Source: a virus | UHGV virus genome: UHGV-0147584 | DNA: 24,897 nt | Reading direction: 5' to 3' (one strand) | In this document: positions 5,585 to 24,897 of the stretch, piece after piece | How positions within the stretch are numbered: the stretch's first letter is position 1 | How the letters are laid out: every line of letters starts with the position of its first letter | The notes under the pieces: model-generated | What the model saw: only the letters and a program-made list of their open reading frames with translations | Database searches by the model: none | Told to the model about the DNA's origin: nothing | Program-made: the position numbers and the translations under genes

Positions 5585-7939
5585 TTACATCTTACGGCGC
5601 TGTGCGTCTTCTACCGCCTGAGCAACTAACTTAGCATGACGTTTGATAGCATCCATAACCATCTTGTCTGAGCTATTAACGTTGCCGTTAATGTTCAAAG
5701 GCGCATTAACTTCAATCGGCTGAGAGTTACCACCGCCTGATTTTTGAGCAGATAAGAAGTCTTTCAAATCACCGTTAGTACGCTGATCAACTACTCGTTC
5801 ACCCTTATCAAGCAACCATGTACCCTCACGAGGGATATTATCGATACCATCATGAGCCATACCGCTAACGTTAGTCGATTTGATGTTTGCGATGTTCCCC
5901 ATGTTCTGAGAAACAGCCAATGCAGCAGCCGCGATTTTTTGACCTGTGGTTACGTTGGTCGGATCGTTCCATGCATCGGTAGCAGCCGTCCACATGTTCA
6001 CCGTCGCTTGTCCAATGGAGAATGCCTTATGAGCATTGAAAGCCATCTGCATAGCCTTTGTGTTTTCCTGCCCGAAGAGAGTCATTGCAGCAGCAAAACC
6101 GCCGTACATATCATCGGCTATTGACTGACGAGCATCAGCGTATTTCTTCTCAATTGCAGCCATCCGTTTTTGATGGTTTTCATTGAGTTTTTCTAATGCT
6201 TCCATCCGTTTAGCCGGAACGGTGATCCCATCAATCTTGAGTTTATCGGTTTTATAATCTTGTTCGGCTTCCGATTTCTCTTTATCGATTGCATTAAATT
6301 TAGCAAACGGATTATTTGAGTCTTGATAATCAAATCCACTGGTTAATTGATTGGATTTAAAACCATCCATTCCCTGTAAATGACTATCAATCTGAGAATA
6401 GTTTTGCTCGGTATCATTCACACGACGCATATATTCTTCGTAGGAGATAGCTTTACCATCAAGTAACCGTTTATGGCTTTCTAGCTCGTTGTCCCTGATT
6501 TGTTGCAAAACTGTTAAGGCATTCAGAGCATCAATCGGATCAGCACCCAACATCATTTTATAGATGTTTTCTGCGTTCTGATCTAACAGTTGCTGACGTT
6601 TAGCGGCTGCGTCTTGCTGAGAGATTAAGCCCATATCTAAAGCAGTGTCTAAATCTTTCAAGCTGGCTTCTAACTGCTTGTTTTGAGAAGCAATAGACGC
6701 GGCTGTCTGTCCTTGCAATTTAACATCAAGAGCATTCAGTCGCTTGATTGCATCCTCGCGTGCTTTCTGTGCTTTTTCTGCGGCTTCCTTAGCCTTTTTA
6801 GCTGCCTCTTCCGCTTTCTTCTTGGCTTCTTCTTGTTCTTTTTTCGATGGTCCGGTGACGCCTCCACCTTGACCCGTTGGGGTAAATCCGGTATCCGATT
6901 TATTTCCAGTGATAGTAATTACCGGATCACCGTTTTTATCACGGGTAACGCCTTCACTATCCACCCAACGATCAGGATAATTTGGTTTATTGTTGAAGCT
7001 GGCTTGTCCACCCGCTAGACCAGTAGAACTATAACCATGCTTGTTAATAAAACCACCGTTAGCCATAGCCATATTCTGGCGAGCTTTTTCAAACCTTTCA
7101 TTAAAAGTCTTTAATGCGTTGAATAAAGCGGTCTTTTCCCAATCTTTATCAAACCAGTTGTAAAGATTATTCATCCCTTCAACAACTGGATTTAGTGCAT
7201 TTGCAGCCATACCCTTTAAGTTATCGGTAAGGGTATCCATATTTTTAGAGAATTTATTATATTCTTCGGCTGTGTCATTGGTGATTTTAACAGTTTGCTG
7301 ATTAATGGCGTTTACAGCTTCCTGATAAGATCCGTATTTCTGCAATTCATCAGCCATATGACTTGAATCACTGGCTAACGATTCCATCATAAACTTAACA
7401 TCAGCGATAGACGCACCAGCCTTGCGCATATCATAGAAGACCTTGATCGCCGCTTTCATCCCGCCTTGTGGATCGTTCATAAACTCGGCATAATCTTTAA
7501 TCTTCAAACCTACACTTTCTAGGTCGTCTTCAATACCGCCACCGTTACGCCATGCATCAGCCAGCTTATCTAAGGTGTCTTTGTTAATATCACCAAATTT
7601 CTCAACGGTTAAGCCAGTACCGGAGAATTGCTTCTCTAATTTCTGGAGTGTTTCGACGGTTAAACCAGTTGCTTTTGAAACTTCGCTGTATTCCTTTACA
7701 TAATCACCGATGGCATTTGCAGCAGAAATAGCGCCAGCAGCCAAACCAACAAAACCACCAGCAGCCAAAGCAAGCGATCCACCAGTTCCGCGAAGGGTTC
7801 CACTTAAACTAGATAAACCACCAGACAAATCAAGATTCATTGCCCTTTCTGAAAGGTTATCAAGCATCTCTATCGCCTGATTGGTACTTCTCCTTAGACC
7901 GTCATTATCTCCTTCTATTGTTACTATATGTCTTGTCAT
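5585..7939 (-). CDS. tail tape measure protein
   Basis: 784-aa ORF directly downstream of the G/GT chaperone pair. Coiled-coil-like Ala/Lys/Glu-rich stretches (KKEQEEAKKKAEEAAKKAKEAAEKAQKARE) and Gly-rich N-terminal hydrophobic segments. Stop TAA. Confidence 0.8.
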   Translation of the reverse strand: MTRHIVTIEGDNDGLRRSTNQAIEMLDNLSERAMNLDLSGGLSSLSGTLRGTGGSLALAAGGFVGLAAGAISAANAIGDYVKEYSEVSKATGLTVETLQKLEKQFSGTGLTVEKFGDINKDTLDKLADAWRNGGGIEDDLESVGLKIKDYAEFMNDPQGGMKAAIKVFYDMRKAGASIADVKFMMESLASDSSHMADELQKYGSYQEAVNAINQQTVKITNDTAEEYNKFSKNMDTLTDNLKGMAANALNPVVEGMNNLYNWFDKDWEKTALFNALKTFNERFEKARQNMAMANGGFINKHGYSSTGLAGGQASFNNKPNYPDRWVDSEGVTRDKNGDPVITITGNKSDTGFTPTGQGGGVTGPSKKEQEEAKKKAEEAAKKAKEAAEKAQKAREDAIKRLNALDVKLQGQTAASIASQNKQLEASLKDLDTALDMGLISQQDAAAKRQQLLDQNAENIYKMMLGADPIDALNALTVLQQIRDNELESHKRLLDGKAISYEEYMRRVNDTEQNYSQIDSHLQGMDGFKSNQLTSGFDYQDSNNPFAKFNAIDKEKSEAEQDYKTDKLKIDGITVPAKRMEALEKLNENHQKRMAAIEKKYADARQSIADDMYGGFAAAMTLFGQENTKAMQMAFNAHKAFSIGQATVNMWTAATDAWNDPTNVTTGQKIAAAALAVSQNMGNIANIKSTNVSGMAHDGIDNIPREGTWLLDKGERVVDQRTNGDLKDFLSAQKSGGGNSQPIEVNAPLNINGNVNSSDKMVMDAIKRHAKLVAQAVEDAQRRKM

Positions 7940-14394: not shown

Positions 14395-14796
14395 TTAAAA
14401 ACGCGCTAGATAAGAAAATTTAAGGCTAAGTGTCCCAACGATACCCCCATCACTAGAATCATCGTCATAATCGGTATTAGAAGCGACTGGAGTTATATCT
14501 GAAATGGAGAAGCCCAAATCTTTAAAACGTGGGTTATCTGGCTGAATCTGGATTATCTGGCAAATACCCTCATGAATTTTGGTTTCATGAATCTGAGAAT
14601 ATAATTGCATTTCGATAACGCATTCAGCTTGCATTGCATTACCACCACGGACCCTAGTGTAAGTCTCATTCATTCCGGTAATCCAACACACCACGTCATC
14701 GCTAAAACCAGTTTGAGTTTGTTCTACGTTTAAAGCCAGACCTAGATCTTGTTCGATAATATCCTGTAAAGCACGTTTAATCTTAAGACGTGGCAT
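14395..14796 (-). CDS. neck / tail-completion protein (hypothetical)
   Basis: ORF frame extends to 14823, but the ATG at 14794-14796 lies 4 nt after the upstream stop (coupled start). Position corresponds to lambda Z/U. Confidence 0.45.
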   Translation of the reverse strand: MPRLKIKRALQDIIEQDLGLALNVEQTQTGFSDDVVCWITGMNETYTRVRGGNAMQAECVIEMQLYSQIHETKIHEGICQIIQIQPDNPRFKDLGFSISDITPVASNTDYDDDSSDGGIVGTLSLKFSYLARF

Positions 14797-19379: not shown

Positions 19380-21284
19380 TTAGAACGATGTTACCCAGCT
19401 ACGGCCTCTATTTGGGCGTCTGGCGATGTTTTTACGTTGTGGTCGTGTGATTGGCTTATTTTCTTCGATTTGCTCGTCAGATTGCGATTTAGGAGCTTTT
19501 ACGGGTTCTTCGACAACACGGTTTAAGCTGTCTTTCATTGCGATGAGTTTATCCCATGACATTTTTGAAAGGACGTAGCGAGAAGCCGCTGTAGCATACA
19601 CGGCGCAGTCGAGCGCCTCGTTCCTAACGCCTGGGTTCTTTACCCATCTCACGCCAGTAGTAGTACGCTTGACAGATTCACTTAAAAGCTGATCGAGATA
19701 ATCATCAGGAACGGTGTCTGATATTTCTAAGCCAATATGAGGATTATCTTTCAGGTTCCTAGCCAACATTTCACGAAATGCAGTTTTACCCACATTAACA
19801 CCCAACATAAGCAATTCATGACCACCTGTGCGGGTAGGTTTAACCGGAATGATCGGAGCGTTACCAGCAGAACTACCTTTGATAGCGTGTAAGTTCTTCC
19901 ACTTGCCGCAAATACGGTATCCAGCTTGAGTGAATCGACCGTTCGATGTATCAAGGAAGCTGGCGAGCATAGGAACACGATCACCCGATACAGTAGTAAA
20001 TCTGGTTTTATGGAAGTTGATTAATCTATCCCATACAGGGGATTCATATCGTTCACAGTTATGATCGTAAAAGCTGCGGTGATCCAGAATATAAATCTTA
20101 TCCTTTGCCACGCCCATGATTGTAGTTTCTGCGCGATCTAATTGCTGGTCAGTACCCGCACACAAGAAAATCACGTCATCAGGGATATTCTCGATAGAAA
20201 CATCTGTTTTGAGTTGTTCCAGTTCATTTGCTTCTACTGCCGTGTCCTGATCGTCGTATACCTTGCCTAACACGGTGTTATAAAATGATTGTAAATCAAA
20301 GGATTGCCACGCATGACTAAAATCAACCACACAAGCGCGGATCGTGCTGAAAGGTGAATACAGACGGCTGATCCAGAATCCTGCTACTTCACTTTCACGG
20401 GTTGCTCTCCACTCGCCTTGTGCTACTGCCCTGATTCGTTCCCCTTCGGTCCATGCGTTCTTACAGTGGGGGCAAATATAACGAGCGGTATCAGGATCGG
20501 GTAAGTTCTTACCATCGATGTTACGCCATTCAAACTGTACGTTTTCCCACTCGATCACCTGGTGTCTACCGCAATGAGGACACGGAACAAAAAACATACG
20601 CATATCACTTGATAACCATTGCTGGTTAATGCTTCCGAGCTTACTGGTCGGGGTACTGGATACGACTAATCGGCCTTCATCGCCAAAGGTAGTTAAACGG
20701 TTAGCAGCCAGTGCCACCGGATCACCTTCTTCTGAGGCTGTAGCAGCATCGATTTCGTCAAGCAATCCAACCTTTGCGGTCTTACCGCGTAGGGTTGATG
20801 GACTAGTAAGCGATACCATATAAAGGAAGTGGTTTGATTTGAGCTGGAGCTGATTGTTGTTATTAACAGAATTGCGATCATTCTTGTCTGTAACCACGTC
20901 TTTTAATGCATCACATGCTTCGATAGACGGTCGGATCTTACCCGCGAGATATTGAGACATTTCTTTAGCGGTTGATTGTCCGATAATCATATTGCATGGA
21001 TCGTTAGCCATCTGGTTAAACAGGATGCCGTTCAAGATGGTAGTCTTTCCGATCTGCGCACTGGTCATCAGAACATACTTTTTCTTGTTCTCAAGGAAAG
21101 GAGCATCAATCATACCTTTCTGGAATGACAGCAATTTAACTTTATCCCCAGCTTGAGGACCATCTACCAGCACCATATTCGCTTCGCACCATTCAGAAGG
21201 AAGGAGCTTAGGCGGTGGCGTAATATATTTGGCTGCATTTTTGAGAATCTTTTTTAATTTGGCCTTATTTGAAATCAGTTTCAT
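19380..21284 (-). CDS. terminase large subunit, lambda gpA family
   Basis: 634-aa ORF. Walker A-like TSAQIGKTT, paired CPHCG...CPHC motifs, [11 protein letters not shown] and [11 protein letters not shown] segments closely resembling lambda gpA as recalled. SD GAGGGT. Stop TAA. Confidence 0.9.
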
Positions 21285-21369: not shown

Positions 21370-21972
21370 ATGCTAATTAATCAACAACAAAGAGATGAAT
21401 TAGAATTAGCCTTGTCTTGTACCGATCATGAATATCGTTTGCCAGTTAAGCATAAGCATTTAAAAACCGACTACACTACATCTGGCTTTAGTCGTGAGGA
21501 AGCGAAAGAGATTTTAATAGAGTTTTACCGCGATAATGGTTATACAGACGTTCACAACTTCTTTAAGAAGCATAGAACATCACATACAGAGTTTCGGAGA
21601 GTCCGAGATTGGTTTGATTTTGATATCAAGCGTTATTATCGAGTGGATGACGGTCCTATCTATCGGTTGCAGTGGACACCGATCAGGGAAGTGTTGAAAC
21701 AGAAGAGATTGAATCACGCCATTACACGCTATCGTAACGAGGCTTTCAAGAAAGGCTATGGTGATACAAGGGAACTATTCGTTGAACTCGCTAACGTGAA
21801 ATATAGCCACTATTACAACGATCCTACAGGGTTCTTCGAAGTGCTTCGCAAGGTTGATATTAGTCGGGGTACATATTATTCACGGCTGAGGAAGTACGGG
21901 ATTAAGGTAGAGTTCTTTATGTCGGTTGACGACTCACCCATGTTCAAGATAAAATCTAAGTCCTCTAAATAA
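21370..21972 (+). CDS. hypothetical DNA-binding protein with C-terminal HTH-like motif
   Basis: 200-aa ORF with SD AAAGGGGG. C-terminal [20 protein letters not shown] looks like a helix-turn-helix; paralogous to the following small gene. Stop TAA. Confidence 0.5.
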
Positions 21973-22007
21973 TATTGAGAAATCACTATTGTTTGGAGGA
22001 AACTACT

Positions 22008-22235
22008 ATGACTACTAAAGCTACTCGCGGTCGCCCTGCCCGTTTTAACGCTGAACAGATGGCTGATATTGCCTACGCTTACTATACAGCGGATCGTGGT
22101 AAGGAAGCGAAAGAACAGATTCTTAGTGAACATGGGATCTCAATCGCCCAATTCTATAAGAATATGAAGAAGTTAGACATTAAATTCTATGTTCAGATCG
22201 GTGATGGTCAGATCGTAGAAGCAACAGGTTTTTGA
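22008..22235 (+). CDS. small DNA-binding protein (RGRP motif plus HTH-like C-terminus)
   Basis: ATG 22008 is preceded by GGAGGA at 7 nt (the ORF track begins at an upstream TTG). Sequence MTTKATRGRPARF...HGISIAQFYKNMKKLDIKF. Stop TGA. Confidence 0.5.
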   Translation: MTTKATRGRPARFNAEQMADIAYAYYTADRGKEAKEQILSEHGISIAQFYKNMKKLDIKFYVQIGDGQIVEATGF

Positions 22236-22395: not shown

Positions 22396-22420
22396 AAAAA
22401 AGCCCCTGAAATTCAGGGGC
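22396..22420 (-). terminator. intrinsic terminator (minus strand) after the Rha-like gene
   Basis: Minus-strand RNA GCCCCUGAA-u-UUCAGGGGC followed by UUUUUUGUAUCU. Confidence 0.7.
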
Positions 22421-22428
22421 AAAAATTA

Positions 22429-23256
22429 TTACAGTCCGAAGACTTCCAGAGAGCCAGCATTCTGACGAATCAGCAAAGCAGTGTTATTAATGATTGCTCG
22501 TGAGTTGTTCGGCTGTGGCAATTTCAAAGTTGCGGCCTTTTCTTCTTCAAGCAATCCGAGTTTTACGAGATGCGGGATAGCATCAGCAGTGAACTCGATC
22601 TGACCGTGTGCCGACATACGAGCGAACATATAGCCAGGAGGAAGCAGATCATAGCCTTTAGGCTTACCAGAAGCATCCAGACGACGCTCAAGAACACCAG
22701 CAGCACATAAACCTTTCAGAATCATTTGTACCGTCGTAGAGCCTCGTTTTTCGCCTAATAAGCGGCTAAGACTGTGTGTGTCGATAGCTTTACGAACATG
22801 CAATTCAACCAGTTGTTTCTTTTCTTGAATCAGTTGTTCGTTTGCGGCTTCCAATTCCATTGCCTCACGAATCCAGTCGAGCTTAGTCATGTTTGCGTAA
22901 GGGTTGATTTGCTGAGAACGCAGTTTTTCATTTTCTTCTTTCAGTCGCTTCCATTCCTGAATAACAACCATTCGACGCTTAACATCGTAACCAGTGACAA
23001 GAGTCAGCGTCATTTCTTCGTCTAAGTGATATTCGGTTTGTTCACGTCCACACTGATCAAGATAGGTGCGCTCAAAACTGAGCACATCTAATTCCAGAGC
23101 ATCGAGCATGGATTTAATATCACGTTTAACGTTTTTGTGTTCTTTTCCGGTAAATTCAGCGATCTGACGAGAAGACATGGTCAGCGGTTTGGTGTTATCA
23201 ACAACCAGAGACACGGAAGCAGTTTTAGCAGTATTCATAACGGTAACAGTATTCAT
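22429..23256 (-). CDS. phage regulatory protein Rha / antirepressor
   Basis: N-terminal SSRQIAEFTGKEHKNVKRDIKSML...TLVTGYDVKRRMVVIQEWKRL matches the Rha-family signature as recalled; coiled-coil middle and a C-terminal domain of unknown function. SD AAGGGGAA. Stop TAA. Confidence 0.75.
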   Translation of the reverse strand: MNTVTVMNTAKTASVSLVVDNTKPLTMSSRQIAEFTGKEHKNVKRDIKSMLDALELDVLSFERTYLDQCGREQTEYHLDEEMTLTLVTGYDVKRRMVVIQEWKRLKEENEKLRSQQINPYANMTKLDWIREAMELEAANEQLIQEKKQLVELHVRKAIDTHSLSRLLGEKRGSTTVQMILKGLCAAGVLERRLDASGKPKGYDLLPPGYMFARMSAHGQIEFTADAIPHLVKLGLLEEEKAATLKLPQPNNSRAIINNTALLIRQNAGSLEVFGL

Positions 23257-23299: not shown

Positions 23300-23321
23300 G
23301 TTCCGGCAGCATCACCGGAAC
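23300..23321. promoter_or_regulatory. intergenic hairpin between the 110-aa gene and the Rha gene
   Basis: GTTCCGG-cagcatca-CCGGAAC, 7-bp stem. A T-rich run follows on the plus strand only, so orientation and role are ambiguous. Confidence 0.4.
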
Positions 23322-23345: not shown

Positions 23346-23678
23346 TTACCAATCGATTTCTACTTGGTCTTCTTCATAATAAGGAATCGCATATTCATAA
23401 CGCCAGTTTTCGATGATTTCACGTTCTTCATTAGTAAGAAGGTGATTGCTAACTGGAGTCGCATTGTGATTACCAGCTTCGAATTGTTCGCGAACTTCCA
23501 GCATTGCATGAATACCAGTTAAGGACATCAGATCAAACGGAACATGCATACTACGGGAGATTGTTTCACGGGATACGCCCCAATCATTTTCTACATGGCT
23601 AGGGCTTACAGAAACGGTTTTGCCGGAGATTTTAACAGTCCAGTCATACAGGGATTTAGTGATGGTAAATTCTTTCAT
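23346..23678 (-). CDS. hypothetical protein
   Basis: 110-aa ORF, ATG preceded by AGAGGA; no family recognised. Confidence 0.5.
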   Translation of the reverse strand: MKEFTITKSLYDWTVKISGKTVSVSPSHVENDWGVSRETISRSMHVPFDLMSLTGIHAMLEVREQFEAGNHNATPVSNHLLTNEEREIIENWRYEYAIPYYEEDQVEIDW

Positions 23679-23798
23679 GTTACATCCTCTTTACAAATCT
23701 AGGTCAAATAGGTTCAAAATTGTCAAGTGCAATAATCATAAAAAAGTCAGAAAATTTTGTCAACACCCCTTGACAAGACGCCAAAGGGTTGACCTAAC
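23679..23798. promoter_or_regulatory. promoter/operator region with repeated TTGACA-like hexamers and a 20-bp palindrome
   Basis: TTGTCAA at 23720-23726 and 23757-23763, TTGACAA at 23770-23776, TTGACC at 23789-23794. TTGTCAAcaccccTTGACAA is a perfect 7-bp inverted repeat with 6-bp spacer. Lies between the 150-aa and 110-aa genes. Confidence 0.5.
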
Positions 23799-24251
23799 TT
23801 ACAGCATATCTAAGCCTTCATCGTAACCGTAGAAGCCATTCTGAGAAGAGAAACAGATTGGCGCGTAGTCGTCGTCATCTTCGTCTTGTTCATCTCGTTC
23901 TGGGGCTTCCTGAGCGGGTTGTTTACCATAATCAGCCATAATCTGGTCAAGATCGGCGATCCCATAGTAAGAGCCTAAATCAACGTCATATTCACGAACA
24001 TCAAACGGCAGGTCATCACGAACAATAATTGCCGGAATGTTGTTGTATTGTTCACGACCTTCATCAGTAAAGCAGTCTACGATCACCGTAGGGCGACCAT
24101 TACGTTTAAGAGCATAGAAAGCAGTTGAGAAATTGGAGTCTTCGGAATGACGAATGATGTTATAACCACGATTAGCGAAAACATGCATCATAGCCAGATT
24201 ATCATCATGGTTCAGACCCAGAAGAATGAAAGGAGTTTTAGTATTGATCAT
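23799..24251 (-). CDS. hypothetical protein with strongly acidic C-terminal tail
   Basis: 150-aa ORF, SD AGAGGA. Alternating hydrophobic strands (FILLGL, YNIIRH, TVIVDCF, AIIVRD) suggest an alpha/beta fold; C-terminal ERDEQDEDDDDY. No family recognised. Confidence 0.5.
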   Translation of the reverse strand: MINTKTPFILLGLNHDDNLAMMHVFANRGYNIIRHSEDSNFSTAFYALKRNGRPTVIVDCFTDEGREQYNNIPAIIVRDDLPFDVREYDVDLGSYYGIADLDQIMADYGKQPAQEAPERDEQDEDDDDYAPICFSSQNGFYGYDEGLDML

Positions 24252-24502
24252 AGTGGAAATCCTCTAAAAAAGTGAATCAAAGTAAGTTCACTATTATTTA
24301 TAACGAGAAATTTTTGTCTAATTTGAAAGGAATTGGTATTCAGTCGGCTTCGCCTCCTTCATAGATTTTGATTAAATCATCATCAAAACGAAGAAGTATC
24401 TTTAGAATATAAGAATCTTTCTTTTGGAGAAATAATAATCAGGAAGCAATTTAGCAACCGAAGGTTGCAATCCCGAAGGGATACCAATACCTTTCATGAT
24501 CA

Positions 24503-24750: not shown

Positions 24751-24897
24751 TAATTGGTTAGCGCTTCGCGCAGTCGGGCTACGCCCTCCTAATATCTTTT
24801 TGGTTATTTGTTGTTTTTGGTTTTACACATGAGCGTAGCGAATGTGTTATATAATATCTATGCACGCCCGATCCCCCGTTTTTGCCCCTCACTAAGT

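Follow-up and report, generated by a model that had tools for sequence, protein, structure and literature searches.

A small acidic prophage protein with a conserved C-terminal tail as a candidate docking protein, beside a slot for exchangeable genes

Two small genes in an uncultured phage encode proteins of 150 and 110 amino acids (p150 and p110). Our tentative reading is that p150 docks via its C-terminal tail onto a conserved partner, which probably belongs to the host, and that p110 is an accessory gene. We give this reading as a whole a probability of roughly one in three (about 0.35). p150 is built as a small alpha/beta domain (probably non-enzymatic), an acidic flexible spacer and a 22-residue C-terminal peptide. 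Acting as a short linear motif, the peptide would anchor p150 to a partner that is itself highly conserved, most probably a hub protein of the host, and the fast-evolving core would act on or block something other than that partner. If this is true, p150 is a compact handle on a conserved host or phage protein which this prophage lineage needs or subverts. Coordinates refer to the window, i.e., the whole stretch of DNA that was analysed (24,897 nucleotides), unless a locus is named.

Together with a Rha-family gene, p150 and p110 look like one unit with two promoters, judging from the gene layout and the lack of a minus-strand terminator before the Rha gene (the gap between p110 and that gene holds none, and a hairpin at 23300-23321 has a T run on the plus strand only). 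The unit would run leftward, with a promoter P1 serving p150 and a second promoter P2, set in TTGAC(A/C) dyads, serving the gene in the second position (slot 2, here p110) and then the Rha-family regulator, up to a terminator. Its genes and its end are as follows:

23799-24251, minus strand: p150 coding sequence (150 aa), an open reading frame; gene 1 of the cassette, in every related prophage examined
23346-23678, minus strand: p110 coding sequence (110 aa), an open reading frame; one of several alternative slot 2 occupants
22429-23256, minus strand: Rha/Ant-like regulator (275 aa), final gene of the unit (Pfam Phage_pRha, 8.8e-14; phrog_63 anti-repressor, 2.5e-20)
22402-22420, minus strand: strong intrinsic terminator ending the unit, GCCCCTGAATTTCAGGGGC followed by a T run

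Both reading frames lie on the minus strand where the preliminary description of this DNA had placed them, and the antirepressor that it put next to them is indeed a Rha/Ant-like gene according to both Pfam and PHROGs. Each of the two small genes has a Shine-Dalgarno sequence 7-8 nt 5' of its start (AGAGGA at 24260-24265 for p150, GAGGA at 23685-23689 for p110). The order p150, slot 2, Rha is held in all E. coli/Shigella and Salmonella-type loci examined, and in Proteus-type loci a short pRha fragment directly follows p150. The Proteus-type loci L037/L038 also have an insertion in the non-coding DNA immediately ahead of p150, at 7236-7892: a gene for a 218-aa CapR/MUG113 (T5orf172-like) endonuclease.

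The carrier is an uncultured temperate phage without a cultured relative, integrated as a prophage in ycdX via a serine recombinase. A survey of 5,426 complete E. coli genomes located the region in 58 (~1%), in every case on the chromosome, and the lineage is also found in Salmonella and Proteus. In strain ES2, the region is part of a ~36-kb prophage that splits ycdX, and this insertion site is common to all lineage members examined. The ES2 prophage encodes a large serine recombinase, a UvsW-like helicase, a GpA-type terminase and lysis, tail and head genes, and the majority of its non-structural genes have no family assignment. A comparison of the window with 50,697 cultured-phage records (DNA, near and distant modes) gave zero matches, a genome-representative scan found no relatives, and the large terminase has at most 44% identity to any cultured-phage counterpart. 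Literature searches on RefSeq accessions and on ycdX prophages found nothing relevant.

The packaging genes of this phage have an unusual layout. The small terminase gene (184 aa; phrog_57, E = 2.8e-15) lies outside the window at L001 26262-26816, ~5 kb upstream of the large terminase gene (window 19380-21284) and on the same strand, and between them are the p150-slot 2-Rha cassette, a non-coding region and two divergent small operons. Two plus-strand proteins of 200 aa (21370-21972) and 75/86 aa (21975-22235) and a 60-aa protein past the end of the window (L001 24362-24544), none with a family, have a common GRPxKF...HTH-like signature and may be paralogous DNA-binding proteins. ARAGORN also reported a 91-nt tRNA-Gln at 14540-14630 (plus strand) inside a minus-strand ORF; this is probably a false positive, because nothing in Rfam, not even its tRNA family, passes the gathering threshold anywhere in the window.

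p150 is an orphan family among small acidic phage proteins encoded beside a regulator. Its homologues in a 5.8-billion-protein collection fall into 75 clusters, every one 'hypothetical' and from E. coli or Shigella, and an exhaustive HMM search found 11 matches in 1.8 billion cluster representatives, the additions being Salmonella enterica and Proteus (36-38% overall identity). The gene is intact in 32/32 loci analysed (30 from IMG/VR, the Salmonella-type L002 and the window) and is also found in all further Salmonella/Proteus-type loci; the copy in IMG/VR locus L026 is truncated or frameshifted, and that in locus L009 is cut by a contig end. Neither p150 nor p110 matched anything in Pfam, PHROGs, NCBIfam or PADLOC, and profile searches of the PDB with them returned only noise at E > 0.2 (CheY, TCR, calmodulin). 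For p150, tblastn against phages and plasmids gave zero matches. A per-member Pfam scan, distant homologues included, gave noise only. No result assigned either protein to a housekeeping family, and the lack of a recognisable family, noted for p110 in the preliminary description, holds for p150 as well across these family databases and PDB sequences. Both are nonetheless genuine genes under purifying selection, with dN/dS values of 0.26-0.38 in the p150 core (dS ~1) and 0.10-0.14 in p110.

Slot 2 is where loci of this lineage differ: at least four unrelated small genes occur there as alternatives, and p150 is in every locus. Across 32 IMG/VR loci, p110 occupies the slot in 17, an unrelated 48-51-aa basic protein (MNTTKKIDGRKNPNRKPW...) in 14 and a 61-aa protein in one, and Salmonella-type loci have a 107-aa p110 homologue, a 57-aa protein or an empty slot. 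None of the alternative occupants has a family match. p110 itself has nine homologue clusters only (E. coli and Salmonella), a net charge of -10 and an AlphaFold2 model with a small sheet and two helices (pLDDT 72). Given this exchange of genes, p110 is best read as an accessory gene, one of several that replace each other here, and it would be aimed at the host or at competing elements. With its invariant promoter, slot 2 is a natural gene-exchange site and could be searched for small proteins with anti-host or anti-defence functions.

The preliminary description proposed p150 as a candidate factor in host takeover or anti-defence. An accessory role is plausible for p110, whose gene-swapping slot is typical of accessory or anti-host genes. 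For p150, presence in every relative is unusual for an anti-defence accessory gene and agrees with a function in the life cycle no less than with one in host takeover.

The 150 residues of p150 divide into three parts:

23922-24251, minus strand: residues 1-110, alpha/beta core with P-loop-kinase-like topology, Walker A absent
23868-23921, minus strand: residues 111-128, acidic disordered spacer including ERDEQDEDDDD (pLDDT <50)
23802-23867, minus strand: residues 129-150, conserved C-terminal peptide Y-A-P-I-C-F-S-S-Q-N-G-F-Y-G-Y-D-E-G-L-D-M-L-COOH

AlphaFold2 (with a 25-sequence alignment) modelled residues 1-110 as an alpha/beta core (pLDDT 71-88), as the preliminary description had predicted, and residues 111-150 as disordered (pLDDT <50). 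The core model has a three-layer alpha/beta fold with kinase strand order, and its likeness to P-loop nucleotide/nucleoside kinases (e.g., gluconate kinase 1knq) is one of topology. Unlike those kinases, the p150 core has no Walker A motif and no lid or substrate domain, and it is limited to 110 residues and has 8-16% identity. Where GxxxxGK[ST] is expected after strand 1, the sequence is LLGLNHDDN or G[LF][DN]..., and 72/72 homologues have no K or S/T in this loop; the core is therefore not a conventional NTPase and, lacking a nucleotide-binding loop, is probably non-enzymatic. Foldseek of p150 against BFVD gave no significant match, and fold searching found no significant structural neighbour for p150 or p110. 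The core could still have a surface that binds a ligand or a protein, made up of its invariant residues (R28, N31, N51, T55, D63, R66, Y69 and the IPAI strand). A CheY receiver domain was considered for p150 and rejected, because other homologues have N or G where the phospho-acceptor Asp would be.

The end of p150 is as previously described, an acidic stretch followed by an aromatic-rich tail: E118-RDEQDEDDDD-Y129, then APICFSSQNGFYGYDEGLDML-COOH. The spacer has a net charge of -9 over 18 residues, and in 72 homologues it is 14-21 residues long with a median of 11 D+E and 0 K+R, so its charge is conserved rather than its sequence. The tail is conserved in sequence, with the consensus D128-Y-x-P-[IV]-x-F-S-S-x-x-[GS]-[FY]-Y-G-Y-x-[ED]-G-L-x-M-L150-COOH. 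Y129, P131 and L150 of the tail and D128 of the spacer are invariant in the 72 sequences, and ~12 of the 22 tail positions show little or no variation across three genera, the tail being retained in the Salmonella and Proteus homologues.

Mean pairwise identity is 0.82 in the tail vs 0.66 in the core. Against L036, dN/dS is 0.064 in the tail (where dS is 0.93) and 0.36 in the core; against Salmonella L002, where synonymous sites are saturated, dN is 0.25 in the tail and 0.63 in the core. The Salmonella comparison establishes that the constraint on the tail acts at the protein level. Tail dS is also low (0.08) in several E. coli pairs, and conservation of the tail within E. coli is partly due to a recombination block common to the tail and the conserved intergenic region downstream of it, so the evidence for protein-level selection is clean only in deep comparisons.

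A disordered and strongly conserved C-terminal peptide behind a charge-conserved spacer points to a short linear docking motif. An exhaustive profile search did not find the tail on another domain, except in P0075, a probable frameshift variant, and searching the PDB with the tail peptide gave chance ankyrin matches only. The p110 homologue of Salmonella does not conserve a 'YA[IP][PI]' motif that had seemed common to the p150 and p110 tails, and the idea was therefore abandoned.

The preliminary description compared the tail with the partner-binding tails of SSB-like proteins, and the comparison stands as far as behaviour goes: the p150 tail is disordered, follows an acidic spacer and is constrained, as expected of a partner-binding peptide. 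SSB-like proteins end in an acidic run followed by I-P-F-COOH (DDDIPF) or by a terminal aromatic residue. Tails of the SSB and T7 gp2.5 types likewise follow a folded domain and consist of a flexible segment, an acidic stretch and an aromatic/hydrophobic C-terminus, with a tip more conserved than the linker. However, p150 has no OB fold, and its conserved peptide has 22 residues rather than 6-9. It also ends in GLDML (...YDEGLDML) instead of DDDIPF-COOH or DF-COOH, the DDDDYAPICF stretch being internal, so that the acidic run is followed by 22 residues. The tail is not an SSB tip.

A host partner is more likely than a phage partner, since the neighbouring phage genes compared are all mosaics showing no co-variation with p150, in contrast to the invariant tail. 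In one specific version, p150 would be an adaptor docked on the beta sliding clamp of the host via G-L-[D/E/Q]-M-L-COOH, possibly with Y-x-P-[IV]-x-F as a second contact, and would so couple or redirect host replication at prophage induction in the way of the terminal clamp-binding motifs of Mu MuC/Mor. The clamp-binding consensus is QL[SD]LF, and the phage Mu MuC/Mor termini are Qx[D/E][L/M]F and QPDLF (PMC12867686). The p150 C-terminus fits the L, acidic and L/M positions and is disordered, as in Pol IV, Pol II and MuC. On the other hand, G146-L-D-M-L150 fits 3/5 positions by residue class, with G or A in place of Q and L rather than F as the last residue, and the conserved region of p150 is four times longer than a clamp motif. 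We treat the likeness as a lead of low probability. In a more general form of this reading, the tail would be a docking motif of 22 residues, new in kind, for some hub protein that enterobacteria conserve.

If the partner of the tail is instead a phage protein, p150 may have a phage-internal role in the life cycle, e.g., as a replication/recombination accessory. It might work with the serine integrase as its directionality factor, with Rha as a co-factor, or with the UvsW-like helicase or a 313-aa protein as a partner. We rate this group of explanations somewhat below the docking reading. p150 is in every member of a lineage whose examined members all use ycdX, it is always co-located with Rha, and no gene of the prophage is assigned as a directionality factor, a replication initiator or a repressor. 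The 313-aa protein, encoded across the non-coding region, has a similar acidic-aromatic end. However, ~6 kb separate the genes for p150 and the integrase when the genome is circularised, and Rha modules vary widely while the p150 tail is invariant. In addition, p150 allele type shows no co-variation with alleles of Rha, TerL, p86, p200, slot 2 or upstream genes. The gene of the 313-aa protein (L001 24659-25600, outside the window) is divergent to the cassette, and the protein echoes p150 in having an aromatic-rich C-terminus (EDEEEEQKRNAAMLHDEMYGTNFSYCQ) behind an acidic run.

The acidity of p150 allows another reading, in which it is a DNA mimic that acts against restriction or other defences in the manner of Ocr or ArdA, with p110 as a second anti-defence protein. 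The charges would suit a mimic: -19 for p150 as a whole (pI 4.12), -16 to -22 for its homologues, and a further negative protein in p110. Like p150, Ocr and ArdA are small and very acidic (pI ~4), and their genes follow strong sigma-70 promoters on a mobile element; such promoters plus the variability of slot 2 resemble anti-defence islands (for the principle, PMC7648647). The fold and the location of the charge speak against it: p150 has an alpha/beta sandwich where Ocr is all-alpha, its charge is concentrated in the disordered spacer rather than laid out as a rigid DNA-like array, and there is no sequence or structural match to Ocr or ArdA and no mimic fold. The DNA-mimic role raised in the preliminary description therefore finds no support in the fold of p150, and we give it little credence.

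It is similarly doubtful that the tail is a degradation signal (for Lon, ClpXP or FtsH) which limits the lifetime of an early regulator. Temperate phages often have early regulators that are unstable, and the p150 tail is disordered, hydrophobic/aromatic and C-terminal. But degradation signals usually tolerate substitutions, and the conservation of this tail is too strict for one. Finally, the idea that p150 and p110 are chance reading frames or decayed genes of a defective prophage, for which one could cite the lack of family matches and the mere 11 matches in 1.8 billion representatives, is refuted by the selection analysis and has next to no probability: both genes remain in frame and intact at up to 60% protein divergence, with dN/dS of 0.1-0.4, good ribosome-binding sites and synteny across three genera.

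The features relevant to control of the unit are these:

24293-24320, minus strand: P1, promoter-like site TAGACA-16-AATAAT ahead of p150 (10/12 match)
24271-24292, minus strand: inverted repeat AGTGAA-N10-TTCACT between P1 and the p150 ribosome-binding site, not conserved
23735-23763, minus strand: P2, near-consensus sigma-70 promoter TTGACA-17-TATGAT ahead of slot 2 (11/12 match)
23700-23796, no strand assigned: cluster of TTGAC(A/C) half-sites around P2, a candidate operator set
23700-23707 and 23789-23796: outer dyad at P2, TAGGTCAA / TTGACCTA
23757-23776: inner perfect dyad TTGTCAA-N6-TTGACAA at P2, overlapping the -35 hexamer
23720-23726: further TTGACAA copy past the P2 -10 hexamer

Promoter-like sites are not in excess in this region (4 found vs 6.4 expected from shuffled controls). 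At P1, the -10 block TTATAAATAATA is conserved among loci and the -35 is variable, and the left arm of the inverted repeat is replaced or deleted in about one third of related loci. At P2, both hexamers are conserved in the aligned E. coli-type loci, except for one locus with TTGGCA at -35. The 120-nt intergenic region between p150 and slot 2 has 89-97% identity among E. coli loci whose p150 cores have dS ~1. In Salmonella, the inner dyad and P2 hexamers are kept at 63% overall identity; the L002 promoter retains TTGACA and has TATCAT as its -10.

The inner and outer dyads each occur once in the 36-kb prophage, both at P2, and 3/7 of its TTGACAA/TTGTCAA copies are within this ~60-bp region. 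This confinement and conservation of the P2 dyads supports a regulated promoter. The preliminary description had put both genes under operator-controlled promoters; this is plausible for P2 only, whose dyad is kept even in Salmonella, and not for P1, whose dyad is not conserved. Repression at P2, and an early timing of expression for the unit, may be supposed. LexA/SOS control was set aside, as reading the two promoter regions found no CTG-N10-CAG box, and a regulatory RNA, whether of the c4 type of phage P1 or another known one, was rejected for want of an Rfam match.

Rha is unlikely to be the protein that binds the P2 dyads, because its modules diverge (22-100% identity) while the dyads stay fixed. 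The arrangement resembles anti-CRISPR/Aca operons, which also have a strong promoter with inverted repeats, then small, variable and often acidic genes, then a DNA-binding regulator. It differs in its downstream regulator, a Rha-family mosaic of 275 aa; the modules of this protein vary and the dyads do not, making autoregulation unlikely. Slot 2 is variable but p150 is not, and there is no match to an Acr or Aca family. Across 34 loci, the Rha-family gene is a mosaic of two modules, with the N-terminal (1-110) and C-terminal (150-275) halves reassorting independently; for example, one locus has 22% identity in the N module and 92% in the C module, and another has 97% and 55%.

The non-coding DNA upstream of p150 has several features of its own. 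Small hairpins whose loops read TTCG (CCCTTCGGG, CAACCTTCGGTTG) are conserved at positions 24340-24500; one stem shows a compensatory change or indel (GGC-GAAG-CC vs GGGC-TTTA-GCCC), and the changes in length would not keep a reading frame intact. These features point to a structured element of RNA or DNA, for which there is no Rfam match. A direct repeat of 17-24 nt, TCTAGAATCATCTAGTAACCAGTT, recurs between 24512 and 24737, also non-coding, in three to four copies at spacings of 60, 132 and 10 nt. The 1.4-kb non-coding region upstream of p150 also has about ten direct copies of TTCAGGGGCAAAA, mostly outside the window. Copies are found at 22412-22424 and 24880-24892 of the window and at L001 23657-23850, just past its right end, and the Rha terminator at 22402-22420 is a palindrome of the same motif. 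These repeats could be iterons, or binding sites for a small terminase or an HTH protein.
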